Shown here: in pieces, positions 272 to 39,519 of the stretch
Position numbering within the stretch: position 1 is the stretch's first letter
How the letters are laid out: the number at the start of each line of letters is the position of its first letter
Assembly: GCA_934183155.1 (NCBI GenBank)
Contig: CAKPSB010000003.1
Span: 3,818-67,817, forward strand
Source: an uncultured Bacilli bacterium
Lineage (GTDB): Bacteria > Bacillota_I > Bacilli_A > RF39 > UBA660
Length of the DNA stretch: 64,000 bases
Reading direction: 5' to 3'
The notes under the pieces: model-generated
Seen by the model: only the letters and a program-made list of their open reading frames with translations
What the model was told of the DNA's origin: nothing
Database searches by the model: none
Made by a program: the position numbers and the translations under genes

Positions 272-1312
272 TTACTCTGCCTCCTTTCTATCAAATATCC
301 TACTTTCTCTCAAATCAGTATTATAAAATACTCTACAATCATTAATATTATATTTAAGCATAGCTAAACGTTCTGCTCCAAATCCAAAAGCAAAGCCACT
401 CCACTCATTAGGATCATATCCACTCATTTTCAAAACATTTGGATGAACAACACCAGCTCCTGCCACTGTAATCCATCCTGTTTTTTTACATATATTACAT
501 CCTTTTCCCTTACAATTAAAACAACTAATATCAACTTCTACTGAAGGTTCAGTAAACTGATAATAACTTGGATGAAAACGTGTTTCAACATCTTCACCAA
601 ATAATTTTTTACAAATAATATCCAAAGTTCCTTTCAAATCGCTTAAACTAATATTCTTATCAACAAGCAATCCTTCTATTTGCATAAATTGATGTGAATG
701 AGTAGCATCATCATCATCTCTTCTATAAGTTTTACCTGGACAAATCATTCTAATTGGTGTCTTTCCTTCACCTTTTAACATTGTCCTAACTTGAACTGGT
801 GAAGTTTGGCTACGTAATAATATCTCTTCACCCTTTAAATAAAACGTATCTTGAGCATCTCTAGCTGGATGTCCTTTAGGAATGTTCAACATTTCAAAAT
901 TATATTTATCTTCCTCTATCTCAGGGCCATCAACCACATCATACCCCATAGACAAAAACACTTCTTCAACATCTTCAACTAATTTTTCCAAAATATTAGG
1001 AGCACCAATTTTCACATTATAACTAGGAAGACTAATATCAATAGTTTCACTTTTTAATTTTTCATTTAAAGCTAAAGACTCAAGCGCTTTTTTCTTCTCA
1101 TCATAAAAAGAATTAAAAGCACTTCTAATATCATTCACCTTTTTACCAAATTGTTTTTTCTCTTCATTTGGAACATTTTTTATTTCTTGATTTAATTCCG
1201 TAATTAATCCTTTTTTTCCAAGATATCTTACTTTTAAATCATTTAAATCATTTAAACTAGTAACACCAACTTTATCTTTTTCTAATAAATCTTCAAGTTC
1301 TTTTATTTTCAT
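272..1312 (-). CDS. pheS: Phenylalanine--tRNA ligase alpha subunit
   Basis: 346 aa. Class II aaRS motifs are present (…GWITVAGAGVVHPNVL…, FAFGFGAERLAMLKY), and the length is typical of bacterial PheS. Confidence 0.9.
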   Translation of the reverse strand: MKIKELEDLLEKDKVGVTSLNDLNDLKVRYLGKKGLITELNQEIKNVPNEEKKQFGKKVNDIRSAFNSFYDEKKKALESLALNEKLKSETIDISLPSYNVKIGAPNILEKLVEDVEEVFLSMGYDVVDGPEIEEDKYNFEMLNIPKGHPARDAQDTFYLKGEEILLRSQTSPVQVRTMLKGEGKTPIRMICPGKTYRRDDDDATHSHQFMQIEGLLVDKNISLSDLKGTLDIICKKLFGEDVETRFHPSYYQFTEPSVEVDISCFNCKGKGCNICKKTGWITVAGAGVVHPNVLKMSGYDPNEWSGFAFGFGAERLAMLKYNINDCRVFYNTDLRESRIFDRKEAE

Positions 1313-1319
1313 AATATCC

Positions 1320-1575
1320 TCCCTCTAAACAAAAATAACTATAAATTTAAGGACGACAAAATCGCGGTACCACCTTAATTTATAGTTATTACTATACACT
1401 TAAATCCTTTAACGCAAGATCACACGCTTACTATTAATAAGAACTCCTAAGACGAATTCATATAACTATATTACCTGTTTACACCACCCACAGGCTCTCT
1501 AAAAATAATCATCATACTACTACTTCTTAATCTTCGCTTTTCACATAAGATTATATCACACAATATATACTAAAG
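1320..1575 (-). ncRNA. T-box riboswitch leader upstream of pheS
   Basis: The minus strand carries AAGGTGGTACCGCG (plus-strand 1363-1376), matching the T-box consensus AAnnnGGGTGGnACCGCG. It is followed by a hairpin plus U-run just before the pheS RBS (GGGAGGATATTATG). The ~250 nt untranslated leader has a length typical of T-box leaders. Confidence 0.7.
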
Positions 1576-1582
1576 CAAAACA

Positions 1583-1855
1583 TTATTTTGTTTTTCCAAC
1601 CATATCATAAGCATCTATAGCTTGTTTCAGTCTCAACAAAGCTTCCGCCTTCTTTTGAGCAAGCATTTCTAATTGCCCCGGTTCAATTTTTTGAGCAAAA
1701 GGAAAATATGCGGAATTATCAAATATATTCTCAATTCCAACTTGTGGAAAAGATTCTAACACATGCAATTGAATTTCACCAATTTTTGAATAACCACCAT
1801 GTTTTCTATTTTCATAATTACTATTCATATTACTATTGATTTCAATTAACGTCAT
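1583..1855 (-). CDS. Hypothetical protein (90 aa). Its ATG directly abuts the TAG stop of the upstream ORF.
   Basis: ORF track. TAGATG junction with ORF 1856..2389. No recognisable motif. Confidence 0.4.
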   Translation of the reverse strand: MTLIEINSNMNSNYENRKHGGYSKIGEIQLHVLESFPQVGIENIFDNSAYFPFAQKIEPGQLEMLAQKKAEALLRLKQAIDAYDMVGKTK

Positions 1856-2389
1856 CTACTTTACCTCCGCTTCAGCCATTGCCTTTATAAGCATTTTTGA
1901 ATCATTTTTAAAATATGCATTATAAAATATATCCTCACCAACAATTTTACTAATTAAATTAGTCATAATAATTTCATCAGTAAAAAAATTATTATCAACA
2001 TCCCCAACTAAATTATTAGTTAAAATTTCTGTATATCCTTCATTCAAAGCTAAAAATGTATTATTTTCATCATTAAAACCATAACAATTACCATTTGCTG
2101 TAATTACTCCAAGTAAACTATGCATAAGCCAGTGTCTAGCATCAGATTCCGTAATAAGTCCATAATTAATAGCAATTTCATTATTATGAGCAATATACTT
2201 GCAAGGCATCTTTACTAAATACATACTTTCCCTTTTTATCTGTAACGTTTTAAGCCGGTCCTTTAAAGTCGTCAAATCCACATCTTTAAAAATTTCATGA
2301 AAAATAGTTACAAGTTCCATAATATTATCCTTAACTTCTAAAGTTAAATTTTCATTTGAATCCAAAGCAGCTTTGATTTCTTCTACCAT
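1856..2389 (-). CDS. Hypothetical protein (177 aa)
   Basis: ORF track. It is divergent from the ATP-grasp operon. Codon usage is consistent with neighbours. No recognisable family. Confidence 0.45.
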   Translation of the reverse strand: MVEEIKAALDSNENLTLEVKDNIMELVTIFHEIFKDVDLTTLKDRLKTLQIKRESMYLVKMPCKYIAHNNEIAINYGLITESDARHWLMHSLLGVITANGNCYGFNDENNTFLALNEGYTEILTNNLVGDVDNNFFTDEIIMTNLISKIVGEDIFYNAYFKNDSKMLIKAMAEAEVK

Positions 2390-2643
2390 AACTAAATCAC
2401 CTATGAGGTATTATACCATATGCCCAAATAAAAGTATACATCTTTTTCACCTTTTTTTGACATTTATTATACACTCTATACCATAATCTTCTCTTTATCC
2501 ATTAAAGCAAAATATAAAACAAATTTTTAAAAAAGTTTTCCACATAGTTTTCCACATTTTATTTTTTTAAAATAGAAACCAAACGTATAATTGCTTTATA
2601 CCCAATTTTGTTATATAATTAAAAACATAGAAAGAGGGATAAT

Positions 2644-3867
2644 ATGAAAACATTTCTTCCAATAATTCTTGGTACAGATGCCAACGCATACGGACTTGCT
2701 CGCTCATTTTATGATAAATATAAAATTAAATCTCTTGCTGTCGGTTCATTTGCTTTACGAGAAACAAAAAATAGTAAAATTATGGACGTACTAACAATTA
2801 AAAATTTTCAAAATGAGGATGTATTTTTAGAAAAATTAATCGAAATAGGTCAAAAATATAAAACACAATATGATGCCTTAATACTGCTATCTTGTGCTGA
2901 ATGGTATACAAATCCTATAGTCAACAATAAAGAAAAGTTAGAAAAATATTTTATATTACCATTCATGAATAAGGAAATAAAAGATGAACTAGAAGACAAA
3001 GAAAAATTTTACAACATCTGTGAAAAATATAATTTAGACTATCCAAAAACTTATATTGTAACTCAAAAAAACAAAGATGAAATAAATCTACCATTTCCAT
3101 TTCCAGTTGCCCTAAAACCTTCTAACTCTACAGCCTATTCAAAAGTAACCTTCGCTGGCAAAGAAAAAAGCTATAAAATAACAAATACAAAAGATTTGAA
3201 TGAAACAATAAATAAAATATTTTCATCAGGCTACAATGGTCATATAATTATTCAAGATTTTATACCAGGTTTAGATGACACAATGTACGTTTTAAACTGT
3301 TATTCAAATAAAAAAGGCAAAGTTAAAATGATGTGTTTAGGTAGATGCATACTAGAAGAACATACACCATATGGCGTAGGAAATTATAAAGCAATTATAT
3401 CAATGGGTAACAAAGAAATATACGAAAAAATTAAATATTTCTTAGAACAAATAAAATATGTTGGCTTCTCTAATTTTGATTTAAAATATGACTATCGAGA
3501 TAAAAAATACAAACTATTTGAAATAAATATAAGGCAAGGACGAAGTAGCTATTTTACAACTGCTTGTGGTAAAAATTTAGCTCAATATTTGATTGAAGAT
3601 TACATATTAAATGAAAACAAAGAAACCGATTACAATTATAATGAATTTCTATGGCTTCATACACCAAAAGTCTTATTAAAAAAATACGTCTACAATAAAG
3701 AAACATTAGAAAAAGCTTTAACTTTAATTAAAGAAAAAAAATATGCCTACACTTTAAAAAACAAAAAGGATAATAGTTTAATAAGAACATTTTGGATAAA
3801 CAGAATATATAACAAAGACAAAAAAATGTTTAAACTTTATCCCCCAAAAAAGGATGATGAATTATGA
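2644..3867 (+). CDS. ATP-grasp carboxylate-amine ligase, a putative D-aspartate ligase of the peptidoglycan cross-bridge
   Basis: 407 aa. The N-terminus ILGTDANAYGLARSF and the overall pattern look like ATP-grasp/PylC-like ligases. It overlaps the start of the downstream racemase by 4 nt (operon). RBS is AGAGGGATAATATG. Confidence 0.55.
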   Translation: MKTFLPIILGTDANAYGLARSFYDKYKIKSLAVGSFALRETKNSKIMDVLTIKNFQNEDVFLEKLIEIGQKYKTQYDALILLSCAEWYTNPIVNNKEKLEKYFILPFMNKEIKDELEDKEKFYNICEKYNLDYPKTYIVTQKNKDEINLPFPFPVALKPSNSTAYSKVTFAGKEKSYKITNTKDLNETINKIFSSGYNGHIIIQDFIPGLDDTMYVLNCYSNKKGKVKMMCLGRCILEEHTPYGVGNYKAIISMGNKEIYEKIKYFLEQIKYVGFSNFDLKYDYRDKKYKLFEINIRQGRSSYFTTACGKNLAQYLIEDYILNENKETDYNYNEFLWLHTPKVLLKKYVYNKETLEKALTLIKEKKYAYTLKNKKDNSLIRTFWINRIYNKDKKMFKLYPPKKDDEL

Positions 3868-4541
3868 AATATGATTTAGGAATAGTTGGTGGTCTGGGTC
3901 CTCTAGCAAGCTGCTACTTCTATGAATTAATAACAAAAAAAACAAAAGTAAATAAAGATCAAGATCATTTAAACATCATAATCCTAAGTGATGCAAAAAC
4001 ACCTGATAGAACATCATACATCTTAGATAACAAAAAAGAAAACCCTTATCCCTATTTACTAAACGATTGTAAAACATTGCAAAAATTAGGCTGCAAATTA
4101 ATTTGCATACCATGCAATACTTCAGTATACTTTCACGATAAATTACAAAAAAACTTAAATATAAAACTTAGTAATATGATTGAAAACACTATAGAATTTA
4201 TTAAAAACAATAATTATAAAAAAGTCGCAATTATGGCTACAACTGGTACAATTAATTCAAATTTATACCAAACATATTTACAAAAAAACAACATACAATT
4301 TATATTACCAAATCAAGAAAACGTCATGAAAATAATTTACAACTACGTAAAACAAGGAAAACAAGTACCAAAAGATTTATGGGATAAAACAGTAGGGACT
4401 CTAAATGTAGATGCCATAATTTTAGGGTGCACAGAGCTTTCCATTTTAAAAAAAGATTTCAAACTAAATGATAAATATATTGATCCCTTGGAAATTGAAA
4501 CAGATAAAGTATTAAAATTTTTTAACAAAGAAAGGTTGTGA
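3864..4541 (+). CDS. Asp/Glu racemase family protein, likely aspartate racemase
   Basis: 225 aa. GIVGGLGPLAS is present, and both catalytic-Cys motifs are there (…IPCNTSVYFH… and …ILGCTELS…). Confidence 0.7.
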   Translation: MKYDLGIVGGLGPLASCYFYELITKKTKVNKDQDHLNIIILSDAKTPDRTSYILDNKKENPYPYLLNDCKTLQKLGCKLICIPCNTSVYFHDKLQKNLNIKLSNMIENTIEFIKNNNYKKVAIMATTGTINSNLYQTYLQKNNIQFILPNQENVMKIIYNYVKQGKQVPKDLWDKTVGTLNVDAIILGCTELSILKKDFKLNDKYIDPLEIETDKVLKFFNKERL

Positions 4542-4545
4542 AACT

Positions 4546-6375
4546 ATGTGTGGATTTTGTGGATACATAAACAAAAAAGAAAAAGATAATATCAAAAAAA
4601 TGAACGATATGATTGCCCATCGTGGCCCCGATGACGAATCTTACTACAAAGATGATTTTATAGCTATGGGTTTTAGAAGACTTTCTATAATTGACCTTAA
4701 GGGTGGTAGACAACCAATGAGTAATGAAGATGACTCTTTATATATTACTTTCAACGGTGAAATTTATAACTTTCAAACCATAAAAGAAGATTTAGTAAAA
4801 AAAGGTCATACTTTTAAAACAAAAACTGATACCGAAGTTATTTTACATGGTTATGAAGAATATGGTAAAGATATATTAAATAAACTAAGAGGTATGTTTG
4901 CTTTTGTAATTTGGGATAAAAAAAATGAAACATTATTTGGAGCACGTGATCACTTTGGTCAAAAACCATTTTACTATGCCAATATGAATGGTACATTTAT
5001 GTACTCTTCTGAAATAAAAAGTTTCTTAAAACATCCTGATTTTATAAAAAAAATTAATAAAGATGCTTTAAAACCTTATTTAACTTTTCAAACATCAGTA
5101 CTTAATGAAACATTTTTTAGTGGTGTATACAAATTAAAACCAGGACACTATTTTATATATGAATTAAAAAACAACAATTTTAAAACAGAAGCTTATTATA
5201 ATGTTGAATTTACTCCAATAAAACAAGATTTTGATAAATTAGTTAATGAAATTGACAAAACAATAACTAAATCAATAGATACCCATCTAATTAGTGATGT
5301 TCCAATTGGTGCATACCTTTCAGGAGGAATTGACTCATCATATGTCGTTAGTTATCTAAAACCAGATAAAACTTTCTCAGTTGGTTTTGATTACCAAAAC
5401 TTTAATGAAGTTCCTTATGCTAAACAATTATCAGATATGCTTCATATTCAAAATAAAAACGAGCTAATAAATGCTGACGACTTTTTCGAAAGCATAGAAA
5501 ACGTAGAATATTATGCTGATGAACCAACAGCAAATTTATCTGCGGTTCCATTATATTTTCTATCAAAACTAGCTGTGAAGGATGTCAAAGTTGTTCTATC
5601 AGGTGAAGGAGCTGACGAATTATTTGGCGGATACATCAATTATGACGATGATATAAAACTTAAAAAATATCGTAAACTACCATTTTGCCTAAGAAAATTT
5701 ATTAAAACCATCATCTCACCTTTTCCAACATTCCATGGAAAAAATTTCTTAACAAAAGGTGGCAGTAAATTAGAAGACTACTACATTGGTCAAGCCTTTG
5801 TTTTTGATGGCAAAGAAGCTAATAATATTTTATCAAACAAATACAAAAGCAATTTAAAATTTCAAGATATAACTAAACCATACTTTGACAAAGTCAAAAA
5901 TGAAGACGAAGTTACCAAAAAACAATATTTAGATATGAACTTTTGGCTTCCAAACGACATATTATTAAAAGCCGATAAAATGAGTATGGCTAATTCCTTA
6001 GAACTTAGAACACCAATACTAGATAAAGAAGTATTTTCCCTAGCCTCTACCATTCCTGTAGACTATAAAATAACTCATAACACCACTAAATATATCTTAA
6101 GAAAAGCCGCTGCAAAAAGAATACCTGAACAATGGTATAAAAGAAGAAAAAAAGGATTTCCAGTTCCAATAATAAAATGGTTTAGAGAAGAAAAATATTA
6201 TAACATTGTTAAAGAAATGTTTAACCAAGACTTTACCAGTGAATTCTTTGACCAAAAAAAATTATTAAAAATGCTAGAAGAACATTATAAAGGTAAAAAA
6301 AATAACTGTCGAAAAATATGGACAGTTTATGTATTCTTAGTTTGGTATAAAAAATTCTTTGTTGATTTTGCTTAA
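4546..6375 (+). CDS. asnB: Asparagine synthase (glutamine-hydrolysing), AsnB/AsnH-like
   Basis: 609 aa. The N-terminus is MCGFCGY (class II GATase with Cys2), and the PP-loop SGGIDSS is present. Confidence 0.85.
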   Translation: MCGFCGYINKKEKDNIKKMNDMIAHRGPDDESYYKDDFIAMGFRRLSIIDLKGGRQPMSNEDDSLYITFNGEIYNFQTIKEDLVKKGHTFKTKTDTEVILHGYEEYGKDILNKLRGMFAFVIWDKKNETLFGARDHFGQKPFYYANMNGTFMYSSEIKSFLKHPDFIKKINKDALKPYLTFQTSVLNETFFSGVYKLKPGHYFIYELKNNNFKTEAYYNVEFTPIKQDFDKLVNEIDKTITKSIDTHLISDVPIGAYLSGGIDSSYVVSYLKPDKTFSVGFDYQNFNEVPYAKQLSDMLHIQNKNELINADDFFESIENVEYYADEPTANLSAVPLYFLSKLAVKDVKVVLSGEGADELFGGYINYDDDIKLKKYRKLPFCLRKFIKTIISPFPTFHGKNFLTKGGSKLEDYYIGQAFVFDGKEANNILSNKYKSNLKFQDITKPYFDKVKNEDEVTKKQYLDMNFWLPNDILLKADKMSMANSLELRTPILDKEVFSLASTIPVDYKITHNTTKYILRKAAAKRIPEQWYKRRKKGFPVPIIKWFREEKYYNIVKEMFNQDFTSEFFDQKKLLKMLEEHYKGKKNNCRKIWTVYVFLVWYKKFFVDFA

Positions 6376-6377
6376 AA

Positions 6378-6400
6378 AACCTAAAATAGGTTTTTTTATT
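6378..6400. terminator. Bidirectional rho-independent terminator between the convergent asnB and the 121-aa ORF
   Basis: aaaAACCTAaaaTAGGTTttttt hairpin with flanking A and T runs. Confidence 0.5.
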
Positions 6401-6761
6401 TATGTAAAACTAACTTAGAACTTTTATTATAATCAAACCCTTCTAAATATTTAATTTTTGCTAAAGCAAAAGAATTAACAAGTGGCCTAGATACATTAAT
6501 TGGATAAGCCATAACCAGCCTTTCTTTAGAATACTTAATTTTATCCAAAGGAAGAGTATCAATAATATCTATAATACTATTACTATATTGATAAAGATAT
6601 TGCCATTTAAAATATGGACTATTCTCATTTATATCAGATTTAATTATTTCATTAATATTAATACCTTCAATTTTAGATAATTCATCAAAGTATCTTTTGT
6701 TCATTAGCCTAATACTAATTTTTATATTTTCAAGTTCATCTAAATATATTTCACTTTCCAT
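6396..6761 (-). CDS. Hypothetical protein (121 aa)
   Basis: ORF track. Located downstream of clpC on the same strand. No recognisable motif. Confidence 0.35.
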   Translation of the reverse strand: MESEIYLDELENIKISIRLMNKRYFDELSKIEGININEIIKSDINENSPYFKWQYLYQYSNSIIDIIDTLPLDKIKYSKERLVMAYPINVSRPLVNSFALAKIKYLEGFDYNKSSKLVLHK

Positions 6762-6820
6762 AATATACCTCCTTCTTTTAGTAAAACGTATAATATATCA
6801 TTTTATTATTTATGTCAAAT

Positions 6821-9106
6821 TTATACACCCTGTTTCAAAGAATTAATTATAATTTCTTTTTTATCCTCTATAATACCATCAATAACAATATTTTCTACCT
6901 TATCCTTAATGACTTTCTTAATCTTTCTAGCGCCATATATTTTATAATCTATCAAAGAAATAATTTCATCAATAATTTCATTAGATATCTTAATTTTAAT
7001 TTTATCTTTATACTTATTTTTAAAATTTTTAAGTTCCAATTTAATTATTTTTTTAACATCATTTTCATTTAAATCATTAAATTTAATAACTTTATCCACC
7101 CTATTCATAAATGGTACTGAAAAACTTTCATTTAATCTAGAGGTCCTAAACTCATTATTAAACCCAACATTTATTTCATGAAAACCAGCGTTTGAAGTCA
7201 TAATTATAACTACATTATCAAATCTAATTTCCTTACCCTTATTGTTTTTTATTCTCCCCTCATCAAGAACTTGAAGAAACAAATTTATAATATTTCTATG
7301 AGCTTTTTCTATTTCATCTAAAATTAAAACCGAATATGGTTTATTTCTAATTTGTTCTAAAATATTACTATCGTCATATCCTATATATCCTGCTGGAGCC
7401 CCTATTAATTTACTTATACTGTGAGCCTCTTTATATTCACTCATATCTAGTTTAATAACATTATTTTCCCCTACTAATATCTTTCCAAACAATTTAGCTA
7501 AAGCCGTCTTACCTACACCAGAAGATCCACAAAACAAAAACGAAAAACATTTATCATTAAAACCTAATTTTATTTTTTTAAAAATATTACATACTTCTTT
7601 AACCGCTTCATCTTGTCCAATAATCAACTTATTTATTTTTTGTGTTGCTTGAGTAATCATCTTCGACTTTTGATTAAGAATTTCATATGTTGGAATATTA
7701 GTCTTATCATTTATTACTTTAGCCACATCTAACGCTTCTACCTTTTGTAAACGTTTTTTATAAATAGAAAGTTCCAAATTATTAATCAAATTCATTAAAG
7801 AAACCTCTTTATTTTTTAAACTACTAGCTTTTTCAAAATCATTATCCAAAATAGCCTTTTCTTTTAATTTAATAACCTCTTTCAACTCTTTATTATACTT
7901 TCCATAATTCTTTAAAGATTTATTTTCTTTTAAACTTACCTTAGCACAAACTTCATCTAAAACATCTATTGACCTATCTGGTTCATTACGATTATAAATA
8001 TACTTGTCAGACAAATTTATAATTAAATCTATAATTTTCTCATCAATTATAACTTTATGATAATTTTCATATACACCCTTTAAATTCATTAAAATCTTTT
8101 TTACCATTTCCTTAGAAGGTGCTTCAATAAAAACCTTTTGAAATCTTCTTTCTAAAGCACTATCTTTTTCAATGTACCTCTTATACTCATCAATTGTAGT
8201 AGCGCCAATACACCTTATTTTTCCACGGGCTAAAGCCGGCTTAAATATATTAGAAGCATCAATAGCTCCTTCAGCTCCTCCAGCACCAACAAGCGTATGA
8301 ACTTCATCAATAAATAAAATAATATCATTATCATTTTCAACTTCACTTAAAATCTTATTTAACTTTTCTTCAAATTCACCACGATATTTTGTACCAGCAA
8401 CCACCGAAGACATATCTAAACTTATAATTTTTTTGTTTTTCAAAGATAAAGGAACATCACCATTCACAATCATACAAGCTAAAGCTTCAACAATAGCCGT
8501 TTTACCAACACCAGCTTGCCCTATTAATATAGGATTATTTTTGCATCTTCTAGACAAAATTTCAATAACCCTTTTTATCTCTTCATCTCTACCAGTAATA
8601 GGATCTAACTCCCCATTAATAGCTTTTTCATTTAAATTAATACCAAGCTTTTCCGTAAGCGTTTTTTTATTGTTTTTAGGATATATAATCTTGTCTGAAA
8701 ACTCATTATATAATTCATCTATATCAACATTCATACTTACTAAAACCCTAATTGCAACTCCTTCACCTTCATCTAAAAGACTAGAAAATAAATGACCTAT
8801 TGTAACTAATCCATCATTATTTTCTTTAGCGTCTTCTGTAGCATTTTCAAGTATTCTCTTCAAAAGAGGTGTATATAAAAACCATTTACTATGTTTACTA
8901 CCCTTACCAATTATTTTTATAATTTTTTCTTTAAATGCTATATAATCTACACCATATTCTTTTAATTTACGAGAAACTACATTATCACCTTTTAAAATTG
9001 CTAAAAGCAAATGTTCAGACGAAACATAAGGATGATTTAATTCATACATTTCCTTTTTTGCTACCTCAATTACTTTTCTTGCTTCTTCTTCAAAATTACC
9101 AAACAT
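6821..9106 (-). CDS. clpC: ClpC-like AAA+ ATP-dependent Clp protease ATP-binding subunit. Likely start is M12 of the track ORF.
   Basis: There is a Clp_N domain ([14 protein letters not shown]) and two AAA+ modules (GQAGVGKTA; [11 protein letters not shown]; Walker [10 protein letters not shown]). The VGF tripeptide (HEINVGFNN) is the ClpP-docking motif. RBS AAAGGGG sits 8 nt before the ATG at 9106. Confidence 0.8.
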
Positions 9107-9185
9107 TTTTATACCCCTTTCAATATATCCTATGTACATAATGGTAATATTTGAATAATTTTAAACAACAAAAAACTTTATATTT

Positions 9186-10631
9186 CTATAAAGTCTTATA
9201 TAATTTATATTTTTTTAAAATTAAAAATAACATATCAAAATTAATTATTTGAAGATTATCAATTGCATCCTTGTTAGAATGAAGATGAACTCTCATAAGT
9301 CTATACTTAACTACCGTATCCAACGTTAACTGCATATTTATAATATTTAAATTATCAACAAGATCTTCTTCATATGTATGCATATTCTTTTTAACTAATA
9401 TTGGATTATCTACTACACTTTTAATACTTAATTTTACTTCGTCCTTTTTTGAAATTGCATTAACAAGATCACTAGACTTAATAATTCTTGGTTTAACACT
9501 TATAACTATTTTTTCAGGTTTTAGCAAATCAGGCTTCTTTTTTATATCAATATTATCTAAATTTAAACCAGCCAAATCAGTAGATTCTTTTAAAATACTC
9601 TTAGTTTTAGATGATTTATTATTCCTATATGAATCTTTTTCTAAGCCCTCAGAAGGCTTTAAATTAAATATTTTATCAAAAGAAGATACTTTCTTATCAG
9701 TTTTCAAAGGATTCTCTGTTTTCAAAACAAATTCCCTTTCAGCAAGCATCTCAGAAGGCTTAACAATTATTTTTGGACTTACAACCGGTTTTGCTTTAAA
9801 AATAGAGATATTATTTTCTTTTAAAAGGATTTCTTTATCATTTAATTTTTCCGTTGGCTTAATTATAATTTTAGAATCCTTTTTATTAGAAACAGGTGTA
9901 TTTAATTTAACAGCTTCTAATTTTTCAATATCAAATTTAAACGGTTTTAATTTCAACTTATTTGATTTTTTAGAAACTACATTTATATAACCAACTTTAG
10001 AATTATCAATTTTTAAAGTTTTTATAGGCATTTTTTTATCTTCTAAAGAAATACTCTGACCACGTTTATCTAAAATATCTGTCACTTTATTGATAGCATT
10101 TATAATCAAAATAGCCAAAATTTGAAGTGTAAAAACGCCAATTAAAAGTTGCATTAAAGTTAAAACATCATTATTAACATATAAAGCATTATCTTTATAA
10201 ATATTTATATTTTTAGTTTTAACAATAGTTAATATTAAAACAAATAATAACTGAACTAAAGCAAAAGAAAAAATATTAATAATTTTATTTATCTTATACA
10301 TCTTTTTACTTAAAAAGCTTATCAAAGCAATAATTGAACAAGCAACTACAACAACAAAAAGTGTTATAAAATTAGGAAAATACAATGTCATAAATAAGCC
10401 ATCCATCAAATTATCAAATAATTTAAATATAACATCTCCACCAATATATAAAACAAACAAAATAACTAACAAATATACAATAACAAAAGCTTTTTTACCA
10501 TGTTTTTTCTGTAATAACCATATAATTACTGGGACTAATAAAATTACAATAAAAAGTGGGTGTTCTAAAACATTATTAAAAAACACTTGAATTTTATCAA
10601 TAAGCGACAATTGTTTCATAAACCTTCCCAC
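9186..10631 (-). CDS. Membrane protein with a Lys-rich repetitive C-terminal region
   Basis: 481 aa. About 4-5 N-terminal TM helices. The C-terminus has degenerate KP(S/T)E(K/M)L…-type repeats. It sits 46 nt upstream of clpC. Confidence 0.5.
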   Translation of the reverse strand: MGRFMKQLSLIDKIQVFFNNVLEHPLFIVILLVPVIIWLLQKKHGKKAFVIVYLLVILFVLYIGGDVIFKLFDNLMDGLFMTLYFPNFITLFVVVVACSIIALISFLSKKMYKINKIINIFSFALVQLLFVLILTIVKTKNINIYKDNALYVNNDVLTLMQLLIGVFTLQILAILIINAINKVTDILDKRGQSISLEDKKMPIKTLKIDNSKVGYINVVSKKSNKLKLKPFKFDIEKLEAVKLNTPVSNKKDSKIIIKPTEKLNDKEILLKENNISIFKAKPVVSPKIIVKPSEMLAEREFVLKTENPLKTDKKVSSFDKIFNLKPSEGLEKDSYRNNKSSKTKSILKESTDLAGLNLDNIDIKKKPDLLKPEKIVISVKPRIIKSSDLVNAISKKDEVKLSIKSVVDNPILVKKNMHTYEEDLVDNLNIINMQLTLDTVVKYRLMRVHLHSNKDAIDNLQIINFDMLFLILKKYKLYKTL

Positions 10632-10632
10632 C

Positions 10633-12291
10633 TCACTTTATTAATTTATCACATTTAGGAATTTTTTTTAATACCTTCTGCTTAATTTTTTCAATCATCT
10701 CTGTTCCAACAATATCCGCTAAAGTATTTGACTTATAAGCAACTATAAAATATATTAAAATACCAACAATACCATATAAAGCTATATAAGCCATCGAAAC
10801 ACCCCTAGATACACTATAACATGGAATAAATAATTTTATAATTGCCAAACCAAGCACCATAATAATAGTACACATAATAACTTTTATAAATGTCCTAATA
10901 GTTTTCAAATAACTAATATTAGTTTTTTTCTTAACCTGTTTTAAAAGCCAAATAAGTTCTATTGTATCAATTAAAATATTCAAAGATATTGTAGCATAAT
11001 AAGCTTCCAACCCGATTTTATTAAATAAATTCATCATAGGAATATTTAAAACCATTTTTGCTATCAAAGCTCCAACTAGTGCTGTAATAGTTGCTTTAGT
11101 ATTATTCATTGATTGATTAGTATTAACAGACACCGAACATATAGCTAATGGAATTTGAGATAATATAAGTAAACTAAATATAGAACTATTAAGTTCATCA
11201 AATCCATAAAATACTGTCCATACAGCTTTAGACATAAAACTAATACCAACAGAAAGAGGGATAACTACTAAAAATAAAGTTTGTAAAGCCTGTGTAATTT
11301 TAGCATTAACTTCTTTATAATTTTTAACAGCATAACTTGAAGCTATAGTTGGAATCAAACTAGTAATAATACCCGTAGAAATAGCCATAACAATCATATT
11401 TAGCTTAGAACCCCAAGTTTCAATAACACTAACAACATTCTCACTTATTTTAGCCGTATAACCAAGTCCAACAAGACCTTTAACAACCGTAAAAACATCA
11501 ACCAAAACAAAAACTGACTCTAAAAGTGATATAACCACAAAAGGTAAAGCATAAAAAATAATTTTACGAATCAAATCATTTCTAGTTATTTTTACTTCTT
11601 CAGCTTTTGCTTTTTCATTTCTTTTTAAATCTTTACTTTTTTTAATTTTAATAAAAACATAAAAATAAGCAACTAAAGCTCCAACTGTAGCCCCAAAAAC
11701 AGAAACCCCAACAGCTGTTTTCAAAGATAAATGAAATACTTTTAAAGTTAAAAAACTACCAAATAATATAACAAAAACTCTCGCTAACTGTTCTAAAATA
11801 TCCGCAATAGAAGATACTTGCATAATTTTATGTCCTTGTAAATAGCCTTTAGAAACGCTTAAAAACGGAACAACTAAAATAGCCGTAGATATTATTCTAA
11901 TAACCATTGCAACATCTTCCGTAGTATTGCCACCTTTAACACCGCCAATAATTAAATAAGCAACATCAGGGGCAAAAATAAATAATACTAAAAACGATAT
12001 AACACATAAAATAGATATTATTTTAAGACCAATTTTAAAAGTTCGCTCTTTAGTATGATAAAAACCCATTTCATTATATTCTGACACTACCTTACTCATT
12101 GCAACAGGTATACCAGAAGTTGCTAAATTCAAAAACACATTATAAATAGAATAAGCATAACTATACAAAGCTCCACCTTGAGCACCAATAATTGCATAAA
12201 ATGGAATAACATACACCAAACCTATAACTTTGCAAATAACAATTCCAATAATTGAAATTGCTGCCCCCTTTAAAAAACCAGTTTTTTTCAT
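10633..12291 (-). CDS. MOP-superfamily polysaccharide/lipid II flippase (SpoVB/MurJ-like). Probable start is MKKTGF at 12291.
   Basis: About 14 TM segments. The N-terminus MKKTGFLKGAAISIIGIVICKVIGLVYVIPFY is typical of SpoVB/MurJ-like proteins. Confidence 0.7.
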   Translation of the reverse strand: MKKTGFLKGAAISIIGIVICKVIGLVYVIPFYAIIGAQGGALYSYAYSIYNVFLNLATSGIPVAMSKVVSEYNEMGFYHTKERTFKIGLKIISILCVISFLVLFIFAPDVAYLIIGGVKGGNTTEDVAMVIRIISTAILVVPFLSVSKGYLQGHKIMQVSSIADILEQLARVFVILFGSFLTLKVFHLSLKTAVGVSVFGATVGALVAYFYVFIKIKKSKDLKRNEKAKAEEVKITRNDLIRKIIFYALPFVVISLLESVFVLVDVFTVVKGLVGLGYTAKISENVVSVIETWGSKLNMIVMAISTGIITSLIPTIASSYAVKNYKEVNAKITQALQTLFLVVIPLSVGISFMSKAVWTVFYGFDELNSSIFSLLILSQIPLAICSVSVNTNQSMNNTKATITALVGALIAKMVLNIPMMNLFNKIGLEAYYATISLNILIDTIELIWLLKQVKKKTNISYLKTIRTFIKVIMCTIIMVLGLAIIKLFIPCYSVSRGVSMAYIALYGIVGILIYFIVAYKSNTLADIVGTEMIEKIKQKVLKKIPKCDKLIK

Positions 12292-12298
12292 AAAACAC

Positions 12299-12466
12299 CT
12301 ACCTATAAACAATTAACGCTGAAAAACAATATATTTGTTCTTCAAAAGCAAATGCTGATACCGAAAATTTTATATCAATTATCTCAGGATCTTCTTCTAA
12401 AATAAATTTATTAATAGCATTTTCCAAATCCTTCTCATGACCTTCATCAAAAACTTTTACTTTCAT
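12299..12466 (-). CDS. cse60: Small sporulation protein Cse60-like (55 aa). It is absent from the ORF track because it is under 60 aa.
   Basis: The minus-strand translation is MKVKVFDEGHEKDLENAINKFILEEDPEIIDIKFSVSAFAFEEQIYCFSALIVYR. From memory this matches the Cse60/YteV pattern (VKLFDExHEKDLE…YCFSA.IVY). It has its own RBS (GGTGG), and a terminator hairpin of the upstream gene lies just before it. Confidence 0.5.
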   Translation of the reverse strand: MKVKVFDEGHEKDLENAINKFILEEDPEIIDIKFSVSAFAFEEQIYCFSALIVYR

Positions 12467-14400: not shown

Positions 14401-14461
14401 TAAACCACCTACTATAGTTTAGCACATTTTAATAAAGAAAAAAACTTTCTATAAAAGAAAA

Positions 14462-14857
14462 TTATTTTTTTAAATCAGCCGTACAGTGAGGGCATTTAAC
14501 CGCTTTTAAATTAATGTCACTAAAACAATATGGACAAGTTTTACTTGTCTTAACTTCTTTTTTATTAGATTTAATTTTAAATTTATTAATTGTCTTAACC
14601 ATACAAAATAAAACAAAGGCCATAATAATAAAATTAATTAATGCCGAAATAAACGTAGATATAAACCCCGCAACATCTTGCCAACTATAATGGGCCCCAG
14701 CTGTTATAAATTTTAAAATAGGATTTATAAAATTATCTGTAAGTGAACTCACCAATCCTGAAAACGCCGTTCCAATAATTATACCAACAGCCATATCCAT
14801 CATATTACCCTTTAAAGCAAATTCTTTAAATTCATTTAAAAACTTTTTCATAATCAC
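14462..14857 (-). CDS. mscL: Large-conductance mechanosensitive channel MscL with a C-terminal CxxC…CxxC zinc-ribbon tail
   Basis: FKEFALKGNMMDMAVGIIIGTAFSGLV is the MscL signature. The C-terminus is CPYCFSDINLKAVKCPHCTADL. Confidence 0.8.
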   Translation of the reverse strand: MIMKKFLNEFKEFALKGNMMDMAVGIIIGTAFSGLVSSLTDNFINPILKFITAGAHYSWQDVAGFISTFISALINFIIMAFVLFCMVKTINKFKIKSNKKEVKTSKTCPYCFSDINLKAVKCPHCTADLKK

Positions 14858-14912
14858 ACCTCATAAACATTGTAAAAAAAAACATACAAAAATCAATTAT
14901 TTTCATATATTT

Positions 14913-15590
14913 TTATTCTTTAACCTCAAAATATTCTCCAGAATCTAAATACAATATACCTTTTTTATTATTAAACTCTTTAATTATATCTAAATAATCA
15001 TCCAACTTAGAAAACTTATTTAAAGTTAAATAAACTTGATTGCCATCATTCATAGTCAAAAAAAATCTACCATTATCAACCTCATTTGGATCATACTTAA
15101 TTTCTGAAATTCTTTTTATGATTGAATAATCAATACTAGAAATAGCCTTTAAAAATTTAGCATACACCTTATCAGGAACATAATTTATAACCGTTGGAAC
15201 AGAAAAATTATCACTTGTTTCCGTTTTGTCCATTAAAATAGTTTTCTGTTTAGGCAAATAATAAAATAAAGGCAAATTCTCTTTTACTTCTATCACTACA
15301 TTATTTAGACCTCTTTTATACACCTTAGCGGCTTTAATATAAATATCTTTTTCTAATTTATTTTGAACATTCATCGGTATAGTTTTTAAAGCCGATGGAT
15401 AACTTGAAAGACCAGCCTTTTTTATAATCTGCCAATCACTATATATAATATTATTCTTAACGATAATATTATTAATCTTTACATCAGTCAAAAAAGATAA
15501 AATAAGCAATAATATTATCAGCATTAATAACGTTAATAAAATTTTACCAATTTTCAATTTTCTTTTTTTCTTTTTAGCCCCTCGTCCCAA
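14913..15590 (-). CDS. divIB: Cell division protein FtsQ/DivIB (POTRA-containing)
   Basis: Basic N-terminus, one TM helix and a POTRA-like region. It lies immediately downstream of murG, matching dcw synteny. Confidence 0.6.
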   Translation of the reverse strand: MGRGAKKKKRKLKIGKILLTLLMLIILLLILSFLTDVKINNIIVKNNIIYSDWQIIKKAGLSSYPSALKTIPMNVQNKLEKDIYIKAAKVYKRGLNNVVIEVKENLPLFYYLPKQKTILMDKTETSDNFSVPTVINYVPDKVYAKFLKAISSIDYSIIKRISEIKYDPNEVDNGRFFLTMNDGNQVYLTLNKFSKLDDYLDIIKEFNNKKGILYLDSGEYFEVKE

Positions 15591-15611
15591 TTAAATCACC
15601 TATTCTATAAT

Positions 15612-16688
15612 TTAATCAATTATTTTCTTGATATTTTCATATATTATTTCTGTGCTGTTTTTAATTTCCATTTTTTCTAAATTTTTCTTCATTTCACCAC
15701 ATTTTACCCTATCACATATTAATCTATCCGTTGCCTTTGATAAAGTTCTATCTTTTAAATCTTTTTCCTCAATCATAACTGCCGCTTGATTATTTACTAA
15801 ATCTAAAGCATTCAAATATTGATGATTATTAGCTACAAAAGGAGATGGAATTAAAATAGATGGCACTTTAAGTGCAATTATTTCACTTAAAGTAGAAGCA
15901 CCAGCCCTAGAAATCATAACATCAGCCTCTTTCATAATACTAGTTAATCCTTCATAAAATGGTAATATTTTAACATTTGAAGGAAATTCATGTTTTATCA
16001 CATCGTCATAAGAACTTTTTCCAGTAATAAATAAAACTTCATAATTTTTAGCCTTAAAATGTTTAAGTTCACTTTCTAAATATTTACTTACTCTTCCAGC
16101 GCCAAGAGAACCCATAACAATTAAAACTAACTTTTTATTAGGAGTTAATCCAAGCATTTTCTTATCAGCTGCCATAACTCCCTTCGCATCCTCACCACAA
16201 GGATTTCCAGTAACAATTGTCTTATTCTTAGGCATTTTATCCAAAGAAGAAACAAAAGATACGCCAATTAAATCTGAATATTTACTTAAAAATCGATTTG
16301 ATTTCCCAGGAAGCGAATTTTGTTCATGTAAAAATGTCTTATATCCTAATTTTTTGGCGCTAATAATTACCGGAACAGTTACATAACCACCAACACCAAT
16401 AACAATATCAGGATTAAAATCCTTAATTATTTTTCGACATTTTCTAAAAGCTTTAAACAAACATTTAACTGTCTTTACATTTTTAAACAAATGTTTTTTG
16501 TTAAAACCATATATTTCAATTGACTCAAATGGAATACCACGTGCTGGAACTATATCCTTTTCCATTCTATTATGAGTTCCAATATATAAAAACTCACTAT
16601 CAGGTTCTTTCTCCTTTATCTTTTTTATAATAGCCAGTGCCGGATAAATATGACCACCTGTTCCACCCGCACTTATAATAACTCTCAT
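15612..16688 (-). CDS. murG: UDP-N-acetylglucosamine--N-acetylmuramyl-(pentapeptide) pyrophosphoryl-undecaprenol N-acetylglucosamine transferase
   Basis: MRVIISAGGTGGHIYPALAI and GT28 C-terminal motifs. Confidence 0.85.
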   Translation of the reverse strand: MRVIISAGGTGGHIYPALAIIKKIKEKEPDSEFLYIGTHNRMEKDIVPARGIPFESIEIYGFNKKHLFKNVKTVKCLFKAFRKCRKIIKDFNPDIVIGVGGYVTVPVIISAKKLGYKTFLHEQNSLPGKSNRFLSKYSDLIGVSFVSSLDKMPKNKTIVTGNPCGEDAKGVMAADKKMLGLTPNKKLVLIVMGSLGAGRVSKYLESELKHFKAKNYEVLFITGKSSYDDVIKHEFPSNVKILPFYEGLTSIMKEADVMISRAGASTLSEIIALKVPSILIPSPFVANNHQYLNALDLVNNQAAVMIEEKDLKDRTLSKATDRLICDRVKCGEMKKNLEKMEIKNSTEIIYENIKKIID

Positions 16689-20636: not shown

Positions 20637-21407
20637 CTAAAGAATAAGCTTTTTTATTTTTTCTAATCCATTTTTTTCTAATCTAGATATTTGCGCTTGA
20701 CTTATACCAATTTCAGCTGCAAGTTCAGTTTGCGTTTTACCAATTAAATATCTTTGTGTAATAATATACCTTTCCTTATCCTTAATCTCATTCAAAGCTT
20801 TCCTTAAAGCAATCTTCGTTTCCAAATCATATATCTGATCGTCTTCCGAAAGCTGATCAGATAAATATATAACATCACCACCATCGCTATAAATCGGTTC
20901 AAACATACTAACAGTATCCTTCAAACTATTTAAAGAAAGCGCTACTTCCCACTCAGGTAAATTCATTTTTGCAGCAATCAAGCTAACTGAAGGTTCTTCA
21001 TTGTTCTGATATGTAAGTGTTTCCTTTAGCTTTAAAGCTTTATAAGCTATATCCTTAATACTTCTAGAAATTCTAAGAGATGTATTATCCCTTAAATATC
21101 TTTTAACTTCACCCAAAATCATTGGAACAGCATACGTACTAAACCTAACTCCATGGGAAAGATCAAAGTTATCAATAGCCTTAATTAAGCCAATTACTCC
21201 AACTTGAAATAAATCATCCAAGTTATCACATCTACCAGAAAAACTTTTTAAAACCGCTAAAACCAATTTCAAATTACCATTAATCAAAGTATCTTTTGCT
21301 TCCATATTCCCACTTTGATAACTTTTAAACAACTCTACTTGCCTTTCATTAGATAAAACTTCAATATTCGCAGTATTCACGCCACATATATCAACTTTAT
21401 GACGTGC
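20637..21407 (-). CDS. sigG: Sporulation sigma factor SigG. Likely start is MARHKVDICGV.
   Basis: KVDICGVNT…NGNLKLVLAV…DDLFQVGVIGLIKAIDNFDLSHGVRFSTYAVPMILGEVKRYLRDN…FEPIYSDGGD…ISQAQISRLEK. This matches the B. subtilis SigG signature blocks closely. Confidence 0.85.
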   Translation of the reverse strand, partial: ARHKVDICGVNTANIEVLSNERQVELFKSYQSGNMEAKDTLINGNLKLVLAVLKSFSGRCDNLDDLFQVGVIGLIKAIDNFDLSHGVRFSTYAVPMILGEVKRYLRDNTSLRISRSIKDIAYKALKLKETLTYQNNEEPSVSLIAAKMNLPEWEVALSLNSLKDTVSMFEPIYSDGGDVIYLSDQLSEDDQIYDLETKIALRKALNEIKDKERYIITQRYLIGKTQTELAAEIGISQAQISRLEKNGLEKIKKLIL

Positions 21408-21455
21408 CATAATAAAACTCCTTTCTACCATTATATTGGTAAAAAGAAGTTAATT

Positions 21456-24668: not shown

Positions 24669-25358
24669 TCAACTTTTATCTAATTGTTTTAATCTTTTAA
24701 TAACTTTTTTTTCAATTCTTGAAATATAAGATTGTGAAATTCCCATCATTCTAGCAACATCTTTTTGTGTCATCTCATCCTCGTTATAAAGACCATACCT
24801 TAATATCATTATTTTTTTATCTCTCTCATTTAAACAATTAATCTCTTGATAAAGCAACTTCTTTTCAATTTCCTCCTCTAAACCTTTAGTAACAACATCA
24901 CTATCAGTCCCAAGTACATCTTCTAAATGTAACTCATTACCTTCAGCATCATAACTTAAATTATCTTCAAAACTAATTTCCGCTTTTCTTCGTTTATTTT
25001 TTCTCAAAAACATCAATATTTCATTATCAATACACCTTGAAGCATATGTCGCAAGTTTAATATTTTTGTCTAACTTATAAGTATTCACCCCTTTTATCAA
25101 ACCAACACTACCAATACTAACTAAATCTTCCAAATCGACTCCTGTATTTTCATACTTTTTAGCCAAAAAAACAACTAAACGCAAATTATGTTCAATAAGT
25201 TTATTACGCGCACTATCATCACCATTTGTCGATAAAATTACATATTTTATTTCATCATCTTTAGAAAGTGGCGCTGGTAATTTATCCGCACTACCAATAA
25301 AAAAAACAGCTTCATCTTTAAAAATTTTCTTAATAAATTTAATTATTCTTCTAATCAT
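24669..25358 (-). CDS. sigE: Sporulation sigma factor SigE (pro-sigma-E with N-terminal pro-sequence)
   Basis: FIGSADKLPAPLSKDDE…IEHNLRLVVFLAKKYENTGVDLEDLVSIGSVGLIKGVNTY…KLATYASRCIDNEILMFLR…MMGISQSYISRIEK. This matches B. subtilis pro-SigE closely. Confidence 0.85.
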   Translation of the reverse strand: MIRRIIKFIKKIFKDEAVFFIGSADKLPAPLSKDDEIKYVILSTNGDDSARNKLIEHNLRLVVFLAKKYENTGVDLEDLVSIGSVGLIKGVNTYKLDKNIKLATYASRCIDNEILMFLRKNKRRKAEISFEDNLSYDAEGNELHLEDVLGTDSDVVTKGLEEEIEKKLLYQEINCLNERDKKIMILRYGLYNEDEMTQKDVARMMGISQSYISRIEKKVIKRLKQLDKS

Positions 25359-25359
25359 T

Positions 25360-26127
25360 TTAACCCTCCATTAATCCATTTAATAAAACATCCATATTAA
25401 TATTTTCATTAAAAGCTAAATAAATATTTTCAAACATTCCAATTCCAACCACCTCCACCCTTCTAACTTTTATTCCCTCTAAAATGCCACTAGCACCAAC
25501 AGATGTATAAGGAATATACATTTTCTTATTTTTAAAAGTATTTTTAATATTCGTTATTATAACTGGTTTTCCTTTAAAAGTAAGTGTATTACCAGTATCT
25601 AAATAACCATTTAAATTAAGTATCCTTCTACCTATATAAATATTTACTTTATAAGTATTAACTATTTTCTTTTTATACATTATATTTTGTTTTACATAAA
25701 AATATAATACTAAAGGTGATACTATAATTAAAAAGATAAAATTTATACTTATACCATTGTTATAAAATAAAATTCCTTTATGACTATAAGCAAACTCAAT
25801 GTTCAAAACATATAAAAACCCCCCTAAAAAAATACTAACAATATAAAACATAACAATGTTAACTAAAAAAGTTTTTAAATTTCTATACCCAAATGTAATT
25901 AAAATCATTAAAATACTTAAATATAATTTTATAAAAAATAACTGTAAAGAACTTATTTTAAAAAAAAGCACTAAAATAGTTAAACTTCCAACAAATGCGC
26001 CCAAAACAATTCTAAAAATTTTTACATTTCGTTTTAATAATATTTGAACAGAAAAAAGTAGCAAAAAATCAAAAAAGAAATTTAAAAAAAGCACTTCATC
26101 AATATAAATAGTCATTTTACCACCCAA
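25360..26127 (-). CDS. spoIIGA: Sigma-E processing peptidase SpoIIGA
   Basis: It is a membrane protein immediately upstream of sigE. The N-terminus IYIDEVLFLNFFFDFLLLFSVQILLKR matches the SpoIIGA start. DTGN is present in GYLDTGNTLT, the aspartic protease motif. Confidence 0.7.
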   Translation of the reverse strand: MGGKMTIYIDEVLFLNFFFDFLLLFSVQILLKRNVKIFRIVLGAFVGSLTILVLFFKISSLQLFFIKLYLSILMILITFGYRNLKTFLVNIVMFYIVSIFLGGFLYVLNIEFAYSHKGILFYNNGISINFIFLIIVSPLVLYFYVKQNIMYKKKIVNTYKVNIYIGRRILNLNGYLDTGNTLTFKGKPVIITNIKNTFKNKKMYIPYTSVGASGILEGIKVRRVEVVGIGMFENIYLAFNENINMDVLLNGLMEG

Positions 26128-38547: not shown

Positions 38548-39519
38548 GTGAAAAAAATTACAAGCATATTAATCATGATTATTTTAATATTTATCGGATT
38601 TGAAATATTAACAAAATCCGAAAGCATATTAAAAGCAGTTGATTTTTCTTTAAATATTTTTAAAAATAACATTTTTCCATCATTATTTCCTTTTTTTGTA
38701 TTATCAAACATTTTAATCAAATGTGGCTTACCAGAATTAATGGGCTGTTTATTCAAAAAAATTATGAATAAATTATTTAAAATTAAAGGTATAACATCTT
38801 TCATATTTTTTATGAGTATTATCTCAGGAAACCCCGCAAACGCAAAATATACAAAAGAACTTTTATTAGAAGGAAAAATTAATAAATATGAAGCCACTAA
38901 AATATTATGCTTCACATCTTTTTCTAATCCACTTTTTATATTAGGAACAGCCTCTATGTTTTTAAATAATAAAGAAGTTGGCATTCTAATTTTAATCTGC
39001 CACTATTTAGGAAATTTATTTATAGGATTAGGCATGCGTAAATATCATCCAAGCAAAATTGAAAATGAAAAAATTAGTTTACTTAAAGCTATTAACGAAA
39101 TGCATCAAAAAAGAATTAGTAACAAAGATAATTTAGGAATTATTATTACTAACTCTTTAATAAGTAGTATTAACACACTACTTTTAATATTAGGTGTTAT
39201 TACAACATGTTTAGTAATAACAACAATTATAGATAATAATTTAAATTTAAATGACGTCCTACAAAGCATTTTAAACGGTTTTGTTGAAATGACACAAGGC
39301 TTAAAATATATAAGCATGCAAAATATACCATTAAAACTAAAATGCGTTTTAACCGTCATGATTTTATCATTTTCTGGTTTTAGTGTGCATCTTCAAATAA
39401 TGAGTATACTAAGTGACACTGAAATCAAATATTTACCATTTTTATGTGCTAGAATATGTCATGCCTTAATCTCTTCATTACTCATGTATATTTCTTTTGA
39501 CTTTTTTATAAATTTATAA
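38548..39519 (+). CDS. ylbJ: YlbJ-like sporulation integral membrane protein (nucleoside-recognition/Gate domain). GTG start.
   Basis: Polytopic membrane protein divergent from ylbL. This matches B. subtilis ylbJ-ylbL neighbourhood synteny. RBS AGAGGTG precedes the GTG. Confidence 0.55.
   Translation: MKKITSILIMIILIFIGFEILTKSESILKAVDFSLNIFKNNIFPSLFPFFVLSNILIKCGLPELMGCLFKKIMNKLFKIKGITSFIFFMSIISGNPANAKYTKELLLEGKINKYEATKILCFTSFSNPLFILGTASMFLNNKEVGILILICHYLGNLFIGLGMRKYHPSKIENEKISLLKAINEMHQKRISNKDNLGIIITNSLISSINTLLLILGVITTCLVITTIIDNNLNLNDVLQSILNGFVEMTQGLKYISMQNIPLKLKCVLTVMILSFSGFSVHLQIMSILSDTEIKYLPFLCARICHALISSLLMYISFDFFINL

Follow-up and report, generated by a model that had tools for sequence, protein, structure and literature searches.

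A three-gene operon near the start of a 64,000-nucleotide stretch of DNA from an uncultured Bacilli bacterium (lineage RF39, UBA660; positions 3,818 to 67,817 of contig CAKPSB010000003.1; hereafter the window) is predicted to serve the synthesis of a D-aspartate side chain on peptidoglycan. Its genes encode a predicted ATP-grasp D-aspartate ligase (gene 1), a probable aspartate racemase that would work without pyridoxal phosphate (PLP; gene 2) and a glutamine-dependent amidotransferase of the AsnB type (gene 3). Together they would form the same pathway as RacD, AslA (Aslfm) and AsnH in lactococci, lactobacilli and Enterococcus faecium, a reading to which we give a probability of about 0.8. 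Homology, fold, motifs, gene fusions and synteny combine to make this functional reading well supported, and it is from them that we infer every substrate and the chemistry of the wall.

The three genes and their products

All three genes lie on the + strand: gene 1 at 2644-3867 (407 amino acids, aa), gene 2 at 3864-4541 (225 aa) and gene 3 at 4546-6375 (609 aa). Genes 1 and 2 share four nucleotides (nt), the ATGA at 3864-3867, in which the stop codon of the one overlaps the start codon of the other, and a gap of 4 nt separates gene 2 from gene 3. An initial annotation of this DNA had described three co-directional, partly overlapping genes, and open reading frames (ORFs) with exactly these boundaries are present. 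Nearly all other genes in the window, which has a G+C content of about 27%, are on the - strand.

Judged on its sequence, gene 2 probably encodes a PLP-independent aspartate racemase (RacD-like). It matches the Pfam family Asp_Glu_race at 104.6 bits and the TIGR00035 asp_race model at 189.5 bits (cut-off 93.1), and its catalytic cysteines stand in the motifs PCNT (Cys84) and GCTE (Cys189), in agreement with the earlier call of an Asp/Glu racemase with both cysteine motifs. Its best matches in the PDB are all aspartate racemases, the first being the Pyrococcus horikoshii enzyme 1JFL (E 9.8e-40), with which both cysteine motifs align; in the alignment with the C82A mutant 2DX7, alanine occupies the first cysteine site. 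Arg49 and Lys163 are also conserved with the P. horikoshii enzyme and presumably take part in substrate binding. Models of glutamate racemases score gene 2 at just 37-40 bits, and the cysteate racemase model gives 160 bits, under its own cut-off of 190.

For gene 1, searches of Pfam and NCBIfam gave ATP-grasp matches below threshold only, and a sequence search of the PDB returned no meaningful match, as for a family without a solved structure detectable at the sequence level. The fold was therefore established from an AlphaFold2 model compared with known structures by Foldseek. The model, built with 42 homologues, has a mean predicted local distance difference test score (pLDDT) of 93.4, and its matches in the PDB are ATP-grasp enzymes at E values of about 1e-14: the L-amino-acid ligase 3vot at the top, with PurK, biotin carboxylase, carbamoyl-phosphate synthetase (CPS) and PylC. 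These matches are at 11-16% identity and are thus evidence for the fold only; on this model, gene 1 is an ATP-grasp protein. The residues that are invariant in the family (K158, Q204, D279 and E293-x-N295-x-R297) agree with the usual sites for nucleotide and magnesium.

What the ligase joins is predicted from its relatives, which point to a D-aspartate ligase of the Aslfm/AslA family (EC 6.3.1.12). When 1.84 billion cluster representatives (50%-identity clusters) were searched with a profile, 4115 clusters matched at E<=1e-3, 412 of them at E<=1e-30, and the named relatives include a 'D-aspartate ligase' (JGI/IMG) and a 'carboxylate--amine ligase' of Vagococcus. With the Vagococcus protein as the query, the search reached an Enterococcus faecium protein (P0417, 421 aa) that both NCBI and UniRef name D-aspartate ligase. 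This protein heads a cluster of 1209 sequences, in which the members from E. hirae and E. durans bear the same name, and we equate it with the published Aslfm by its database name. Gene 1 is 41% identical to it over 406 aa (312 bits, E 6e-108), and the alignment is full-length, with residues 4-399 of 407 matched to residues 10-415 of 421. The homologues of Vagococcus salmoninarum and E. faecium are 40% identical to one another, which is the same level. Since IMG already labels family members as D-aspartate ligases, a pipeline based on KEGG Orthology (KO) would probably annotate gene 1 correctly.

The initial annotation had proposed that the ATP-grasp protein be compared with Aslfm, AslA and other ATP-grasp families, and the outcome favours the D-aspartate ligases. 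Beyond the 41% shared with the E. faecium enzyme, identities within the same set run from 44 to 53%: 53% to a protein that JGI names D-aspartate ligase (P0418), 50% to a Serpentinicella homologue, 46% to that of Sporosarcina pasteurii and 44% to that of Lysinibacillus. A paralogous branch whose members are fused to DegT-like PLP domains is only 30-34% identical. Fusions also tie the first two activities of the operon together, as ATP-grasp and Asp/Glu-racemase domains occur in single polypeptides (P0123, P0177 and P0249). In a neighbour-joining tree of 155 family members (100 bootstraps), the window's own clade has a bootstrap value of 100.

In the paralogous branch, a DegT/DnrJ/EryC1-like PLP domain is fused to the N-terminus in P0172, P0214, P0217 and P0228; one member of 1235 aa (P0213) also has a C-terminal FemAB domain, and another (P0204) has an N-terminal response-regulator receiver. 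The FemAB fusion hints that the DegT-fused branch, too, may have a role in cell-wall side chains.

Gene 3 has the two domains of a glutamine-dependent asparagine synthase (Asn_synthase, 299 bits; GATase_7, 154 bits; both Pfam) and scores 537.5 bits on TIGR01536 (cut-off 267). The protein starts with MCGF, which places the nucleophile at Cys2, and has an SGGIDS PP-loop at residues 259-264, in agreement with the Cys2 glutamine-dependent type of enzyme named in the initial annotation. In these features it resembles AsnH of Lactococcus lactis and Lacticaseibacillus casei, an AsnB-type enzyme that is likewise glutamine-dependent and has Cys2 and a PP-loop. We predict that it amidates the alpha-carboxyl of D-Asp to give D-isoasparagine, as AsnH does. 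The label AsnH-like comes from synteny; on the data considered here, the sequence of gene 3 does not separate it from the AsnB/AsnB1 enzymes that amidate meso-diaminopimelic acid (mDAP).

Neighbourhoods of the ligase and the known pathway

When one genome per species was scanned, at least 596 species proved to have a ligase relative; the best 80 loci were fetched, and neighbouring genes were counted in them by tblastn. A racemase gene lies directly downstream of the ligase gene on the same strand in 49 of the 80 loci, and 22 loci have an AsnB-type gene on the same strand at a distance of up to 3 kb. Of these 22, 16 are outside the window's lineage; in these 16, the homologue of gene 3 beside the ligase gene is 43-54% identical to it. 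Both neighbours are present in 14 loci. The order varies: AsnB-type gene, ligase, racemase in Vagococcus bubulae and Metalysinibacillus jejuensis; ligase, racemase, AsnB-type gene in Raoultibacter massiliensis (L038) and an uncultured Clostridiales metagenome-assembled genome (L049). In Pediococcus acidilactici, Viridibacillus arenosi, Secundilactobacillus kimchicus and Companilactobacillus futsaii, the AsnB-type gene is 1-2 kb upstream. The presence of all three genes in one place, which had been presented as special, is therefore a recurrent arrangement, with L038 and L049 in an order identical to that of the window.

Ligase and racemase genes occur as a pair, often accompanied by an AsnB-type gene, in several taxa for which L-Lys-D-Asp walls are documented or which are named after them. 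Vagococcus, Pediococcus and Sporosarcina are counted among the taxa with such walls, although searching the literature on the walls of these three genera gave nothing useful. In the loci of Enterococcus, Vagococcus and Ligilactobacillus, the racemase gene is immediately downstream of the ligase gene, as it is in the window, and racD and aslA of L. lactis have been reported in one operon (PMC4155827). Aslfm of E. faecium and AslA of L. lactis resemble gene 1 in length and architecture, and the E. faecium enzyme also has the 41% identity already given. The window's system differs from these in three respects. Its operon also includes the amidotransferase gene; its racemase is 33% identical to the aspartate racemase of E. 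faecium (P0446), with an archaeal enzyme, that of P. horikoshii, as its best solved match; and its host is uncultured, genome-reduced and a carrier of sporulation genes.

The initial annotation had described this chemistry as not well documented in an endospore-forming lineage. This does not hold. Lysinibacillus is an endospore-former that was defined by, and named for, its Lys-Asp peptidoglycan (PMC4566186, PMC6971209), and many spore-formers have the ligase: homologues are found in Lysinibacillus, Sporosarcina, Viridibacillus, Ureibacillus, Paenisporosarcina, Solibacillus, Intestinibacter and Romboutsia. The endospore-forming Caryophanaceae (Lysinibacillus, Sporosarcina and Viridibacillus) have the same ligase at 44-46% identity, usually followed by the racemase, and in Viridibacillus and Metalysinibacillus an AsnB-type gene is also nearby. 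These are aerobic, cultured bacteria with large genomes, whereas the window's lineage is known from metagenomes only.

In the characterised pathway, D-Asp is produced by RacD and then joined by AslA/Aslfm, with beta-aspartyl phosphate as the intermediate, to the L-Lys of the peptidoglycan precursor, and AsnH amidates the alpha-carboxyl after ligation, D-Asn and D-isoAsn not being substrates of the ligase (PMC4155827, PMC13631041, PMC3885529). By the same steps, the racemase of the window would convert L-Asp to D-Asp with its two cysteines (Cys84 and Cys189) and without PLP. The ATP-grasp ligase would then phosphorylate D-Asp at its beta-carboxyl to form the acyl phosphate beta-aspartyl phosphate, which would be attacked by the side-chain amine of the diamino acid at position 3 of the uridine diphosphate-N-acetylmuramic acid (UDP-MurNAc)-pentapeptide. 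By analogy with Aslfm, this acceptor would be L-Lys. The AsnB-type enzyme would hydrolyse glutamine at Cys2, and the ammonia would amidate the adenylated alpha-carboxyl to leave D-isoasparagine. After export, transpeptidases would link D-Asx (D-Asp or its amidated form), through its amino group, to the D-Ala4 of an adjacent stem, which would give a wall of the A4-alpha type.

Other substrates, other products

Several observations weigh against this pathway. Gene 1 is slightly closer (46-48% identity) to homologues in the Peptoniphilaceae, namely those of Anaerococcus (47%), Gallicola, Miniphocaeibacter and Lagierella. No Asp racemase gene adjoins the ligase homologue, 44-48% identical to gene 1, in the Peptoniphilaceae loci surveyed (L017, L018, L019, L024 and L081). 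The peptidoglycan of Anaerococcus prevotii is of the L-Lys-D-Glu type (PMC3035230). In the tree, the backbone above the window's clade has bootstrap values of 0-9 and provides no supported nesting within a characterised clade, so that the assignment of gene 1 relies on pairwise similarity and gene context and not on its clade. As for the acceptor, a search of the window and, on matching metagenome contigs, of 10 kb past either end turned up neither murE nor any other Mur ligase gene. Finally, AsnB-type enzymes in Firmicutes have other activities as well, amidating mDAP or producing free asparagine (PMC8554201, PMC5485061).

This last point underlies the alternative that gene 3 is merely co-transcribed with the other two, as a housekeeping asparagine synthetase or as an mDAP amidotransferase like AsnB/AsnB1 of Bacillus subtilis, Listeria and Lactiplantibacillus plantarum. 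Gene 3 passes the general asparagine synthase model TIGR01536, and AsnB homologues of Firmicutes that amidate mDAP can complement asparagine auxotrophy (PMC8554201, PMC5485061). Against such a role stand the frequency with which AsnB-type genes accompany the ligase gene in other lineages and the mere 4 nt between the racemase gene and gene 3. The nearby genes for GatA/GatB and for an aspartyl-tRNA synthetase (AspRS) with a GAD domain would in addition offer a tRNA-dependent route of amidation, which is a weak argument, as GatCAB may serve Gln-tRNA only. On balance, we consider it unlikely that gene 3 is a passenger of this kind.

A second alternative keeps the ligase family and changes the chemistry: D-Asp or another D-dicarboxylic amino acid, for example D-Glu, would be joined to a stem with L-ornithine (L-Orn) or mDAP, leading to A4-beta or A4-gamma walls. 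It draws on the 47% identical Anaerococcus homologue with no adjacent racemase gene, read together with the L-Lys-D-Glu wall of A. prevotii, and on those species of Bifidobacterium that vary in the residue at position 3, whose bridge contains Asp or isoAsn and which have homologues of Aslfm and AsnH (bioRxiv 10.1101/2023.10.08.561446). Some members of the ligase family are likely, by the comparison with Anaerococcus, to be D-Glu ligases, and the Peptoniphilaceae homologues may be uncharacterised D-glutamate ligases. Given the Anaerococcus case, the D-Asp donor in the window rests on the racemase neighbour and not on the sequence of the ligase. It is precisely this translationally coupled aspartate racemase that argues for D-Asp as the donor, and the characterised enzymes act on L-Lys stems (PMC13631041), which together make a different donor or stem rather improbable. 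In Anaerococcus rubeinfantis, the ligase homologue lies two genes downstream of a wall hydrolase with NlpC/P60 and SH3 domains.

The D-aspartate pathway could also hold for the window while departing from the Aslfm paradigm in some detail. The acceptor might be an mDAP or Orn stem, a D-isoAsn bridge might belong to vegetative peptidoglycan and not to the cortex, the AsnB-type enzyme might supply asparagine as well, or a regulator might act on the TTTTCCACA repeats described below. We think such a departure improbable. Older work on Bacillus (Lysinibacillus) sphaericus is said to have found that the wall chemistry differs between vegetative cells and the spore cortex.

It is very improbable that the operon makes something other than peptidoglycan, such as a peptide of secondary metabolism, a capsule, or a D-amino-acid modification of a teichoic acid or polysaccharide. 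In favour of this reading, such tasks are performed by other ATP-grasp enzymes, the paralogous branch has its DegT-like PLP domains, and the best structural match of gene 1 is an L-amino-acid ligase that forms dipeptides. That match speaks for the fold only, however, and gene 1 is closer to the D-Asp-ligase set (41-53% identity) than to the DegT-fused branch. Nor does the operon have accompanying genes for a nonribosomal peptide synthetase (NRPS), a transporter, a glycosyltransferase or a precursor peptide. The secondary-metabolite and capsule readings were rejected on these grounds of identity and absent biosynthetic genes.

Candidate control elements, surroundings and host

The candidate control elements around the operon were read by eye from the sequence. 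A probable promoter of the vegetative type lies at 2591-2619 (+), with a weak -35 box TTGCTT, a 17-nt spacer and a -10 box TATAAT within GTTATATAAT, which is conserved at the same place in five relatives (L001, L008, L009, L012 and L014). A consensus scan did not call this promoter, whose -35 box matches at 3 of 6 positions. The ribosome-binding site AGAAAGAGGGA precedes the first ATG of gene 1. At the other end, a weak hairpin rich in A and T (AAAACCTA-AAA-TAGGTTTT), with a run of T after it, lies at 6376-6399, between the operon and a convergent ORF of 121 aa, and is a possible bidirectional terminator; having just 2 G-C pairs, it was not called by the terminator scan. Promoter and intrinsic-terminator scans of positions 1300-7000 found nothing above the shuffled expectation, and no convincing internal promoter or terminator.

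Upstream of the promoter, at 2535-2558 (+) in the intergenic region, lies the tandem repeat GTTTTCCACAT-A-GTTTTCCACAT, which may be the operator of some regulator. Relatives have its core (TTTTCCACA/TGTGGAAAA) in the corresponding intergenic region, directly repeated in L008 and as an inverted repeat upstream of the ligase gene in L001, L003, L009, L010 and L014; in L001, L009 and L014, the inverted repeat comes right after the conserved GTTATATAAT box. The core is absent upstream of the ligase gene in L011 and L012. Taken alone, the copy count in the window (3 copies) is not significant, being reached in 18 of 100 shuffles.

The operon had been placed right next to a T-box-controlled pheST. 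A T-box leader (Rfam, 119.7 bits) does lie at 1346-1543 (-), directly upstream of pheS (272-1312, -). Immediate adjacency does not hold, as two small ORFs intervene on the - strand, one of 90 aa (1583-1855) and one of 177 aa (1856-2389). Neither these nor the convergent 121-aa ORF on the 3' side of the operon (6396-6761, -) have a match in Pfam or NCBIfam. The trio itself is kept beside pheST in all close relatives examined (68-80% identity), including one with the locus on a 1.385-Mb contig (L001). In all close relatives but L012, the 177-aa ORF is divergent from the ligase gene, syntenic and 62-85% identical. L012, with a ligase 65% identical to gene 1, has the ligase gene followed directly by the AsnB-type gene (7240-10292), and a racemase gene is absent both between the two and elsewhere in its 16-kb contig. 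In L001, a glmS-like gene (14426-16228; 600 aa, with GATase and SIS domains) sits between a 119-aa ORF after the operon and clpC, and no such gene is at the corresponding place in the window.

Further out, one flank has pheT and the genes for glycyl-tRNA synthetase (GlyRS), SepF and DivIVA; the other has those for GatAB, the GAD-domain AspRS, YabP and YqfD. Two contigs match the window past pheT and diverge after a 432-aa ORF: L091 (15510-17345) continues with a 611-aa serine recombinase (Resolvase/Recombinase domains), and L090 (15113-21041) with ThiF, GlyRS, MgtC, SepF and DivIVA. Their divergence suggests a strain-variable insertion just outside the start of the window. Within the window, a gene at 39996-42755 (-) encodes a protein of 919 aa for which the precomputed annotation of a matching contig gives a glycine-rich Pfam match of the ALK_LTK_GRD type together with faint matches to ricin-type lectins, a combination that is unexpected in a bacterium.

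The host belongs to an uncultured, low-GC lineage that is known only from metagenomes and several relatives of which are labelled 'Bacilli bacterium' by NCBI. Its genome appears to be reduced; a related genome has the 1.385-Mb contig mentioned above. Sporulation-type genes (SigG-, SigE-, SpoIIGA-, YlbJ- and SpoVB/MurJ-like) lie at 20637-21431, 24669-26127, 38548-39519 and 10633-12312 of the window and at 8610-9994 of contig L088, and those for YabP and YqfD are just past the end of the window in matching metagenome contigs. The best NCBIfam matches are 316.6 bits for the SigE-like, 343.9 for the SigG-like, 105 for the SpoIIGA-like and 217 for the YlbJ-like protein, and all four are under the equivalog cut-offs. 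These genes lend real support to the earlier description of the host as a spore-former, and it is a reasonable inference from the gene set that the lineage forms endospores or descends from endospore-formers.

For the family, the survey portrays a very widespread ligase whose linkage to AsnB-type genes is seen repeatedly across the Firmicutes and also in one actinobacterium or more (Raoultibacter), and it strengthens the annotation of similar trios elsewhere. No new enzymology is added. Enterococci, lactic acid bacteria and the spore-forming Lysinibacillus were already known to have the pathway. For the organism, the D-aspartate pathway, if true, predicts a D-Asx cross-bridge, probably amidated, in an uncultured gut lineage. 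Such a bridge would help to interpret susceptibility to lysozyme, endolysins and bacteriocins, and would bear on the muropeptides sensed by the host and on the pools of D-aspartate of the gut microbiota.

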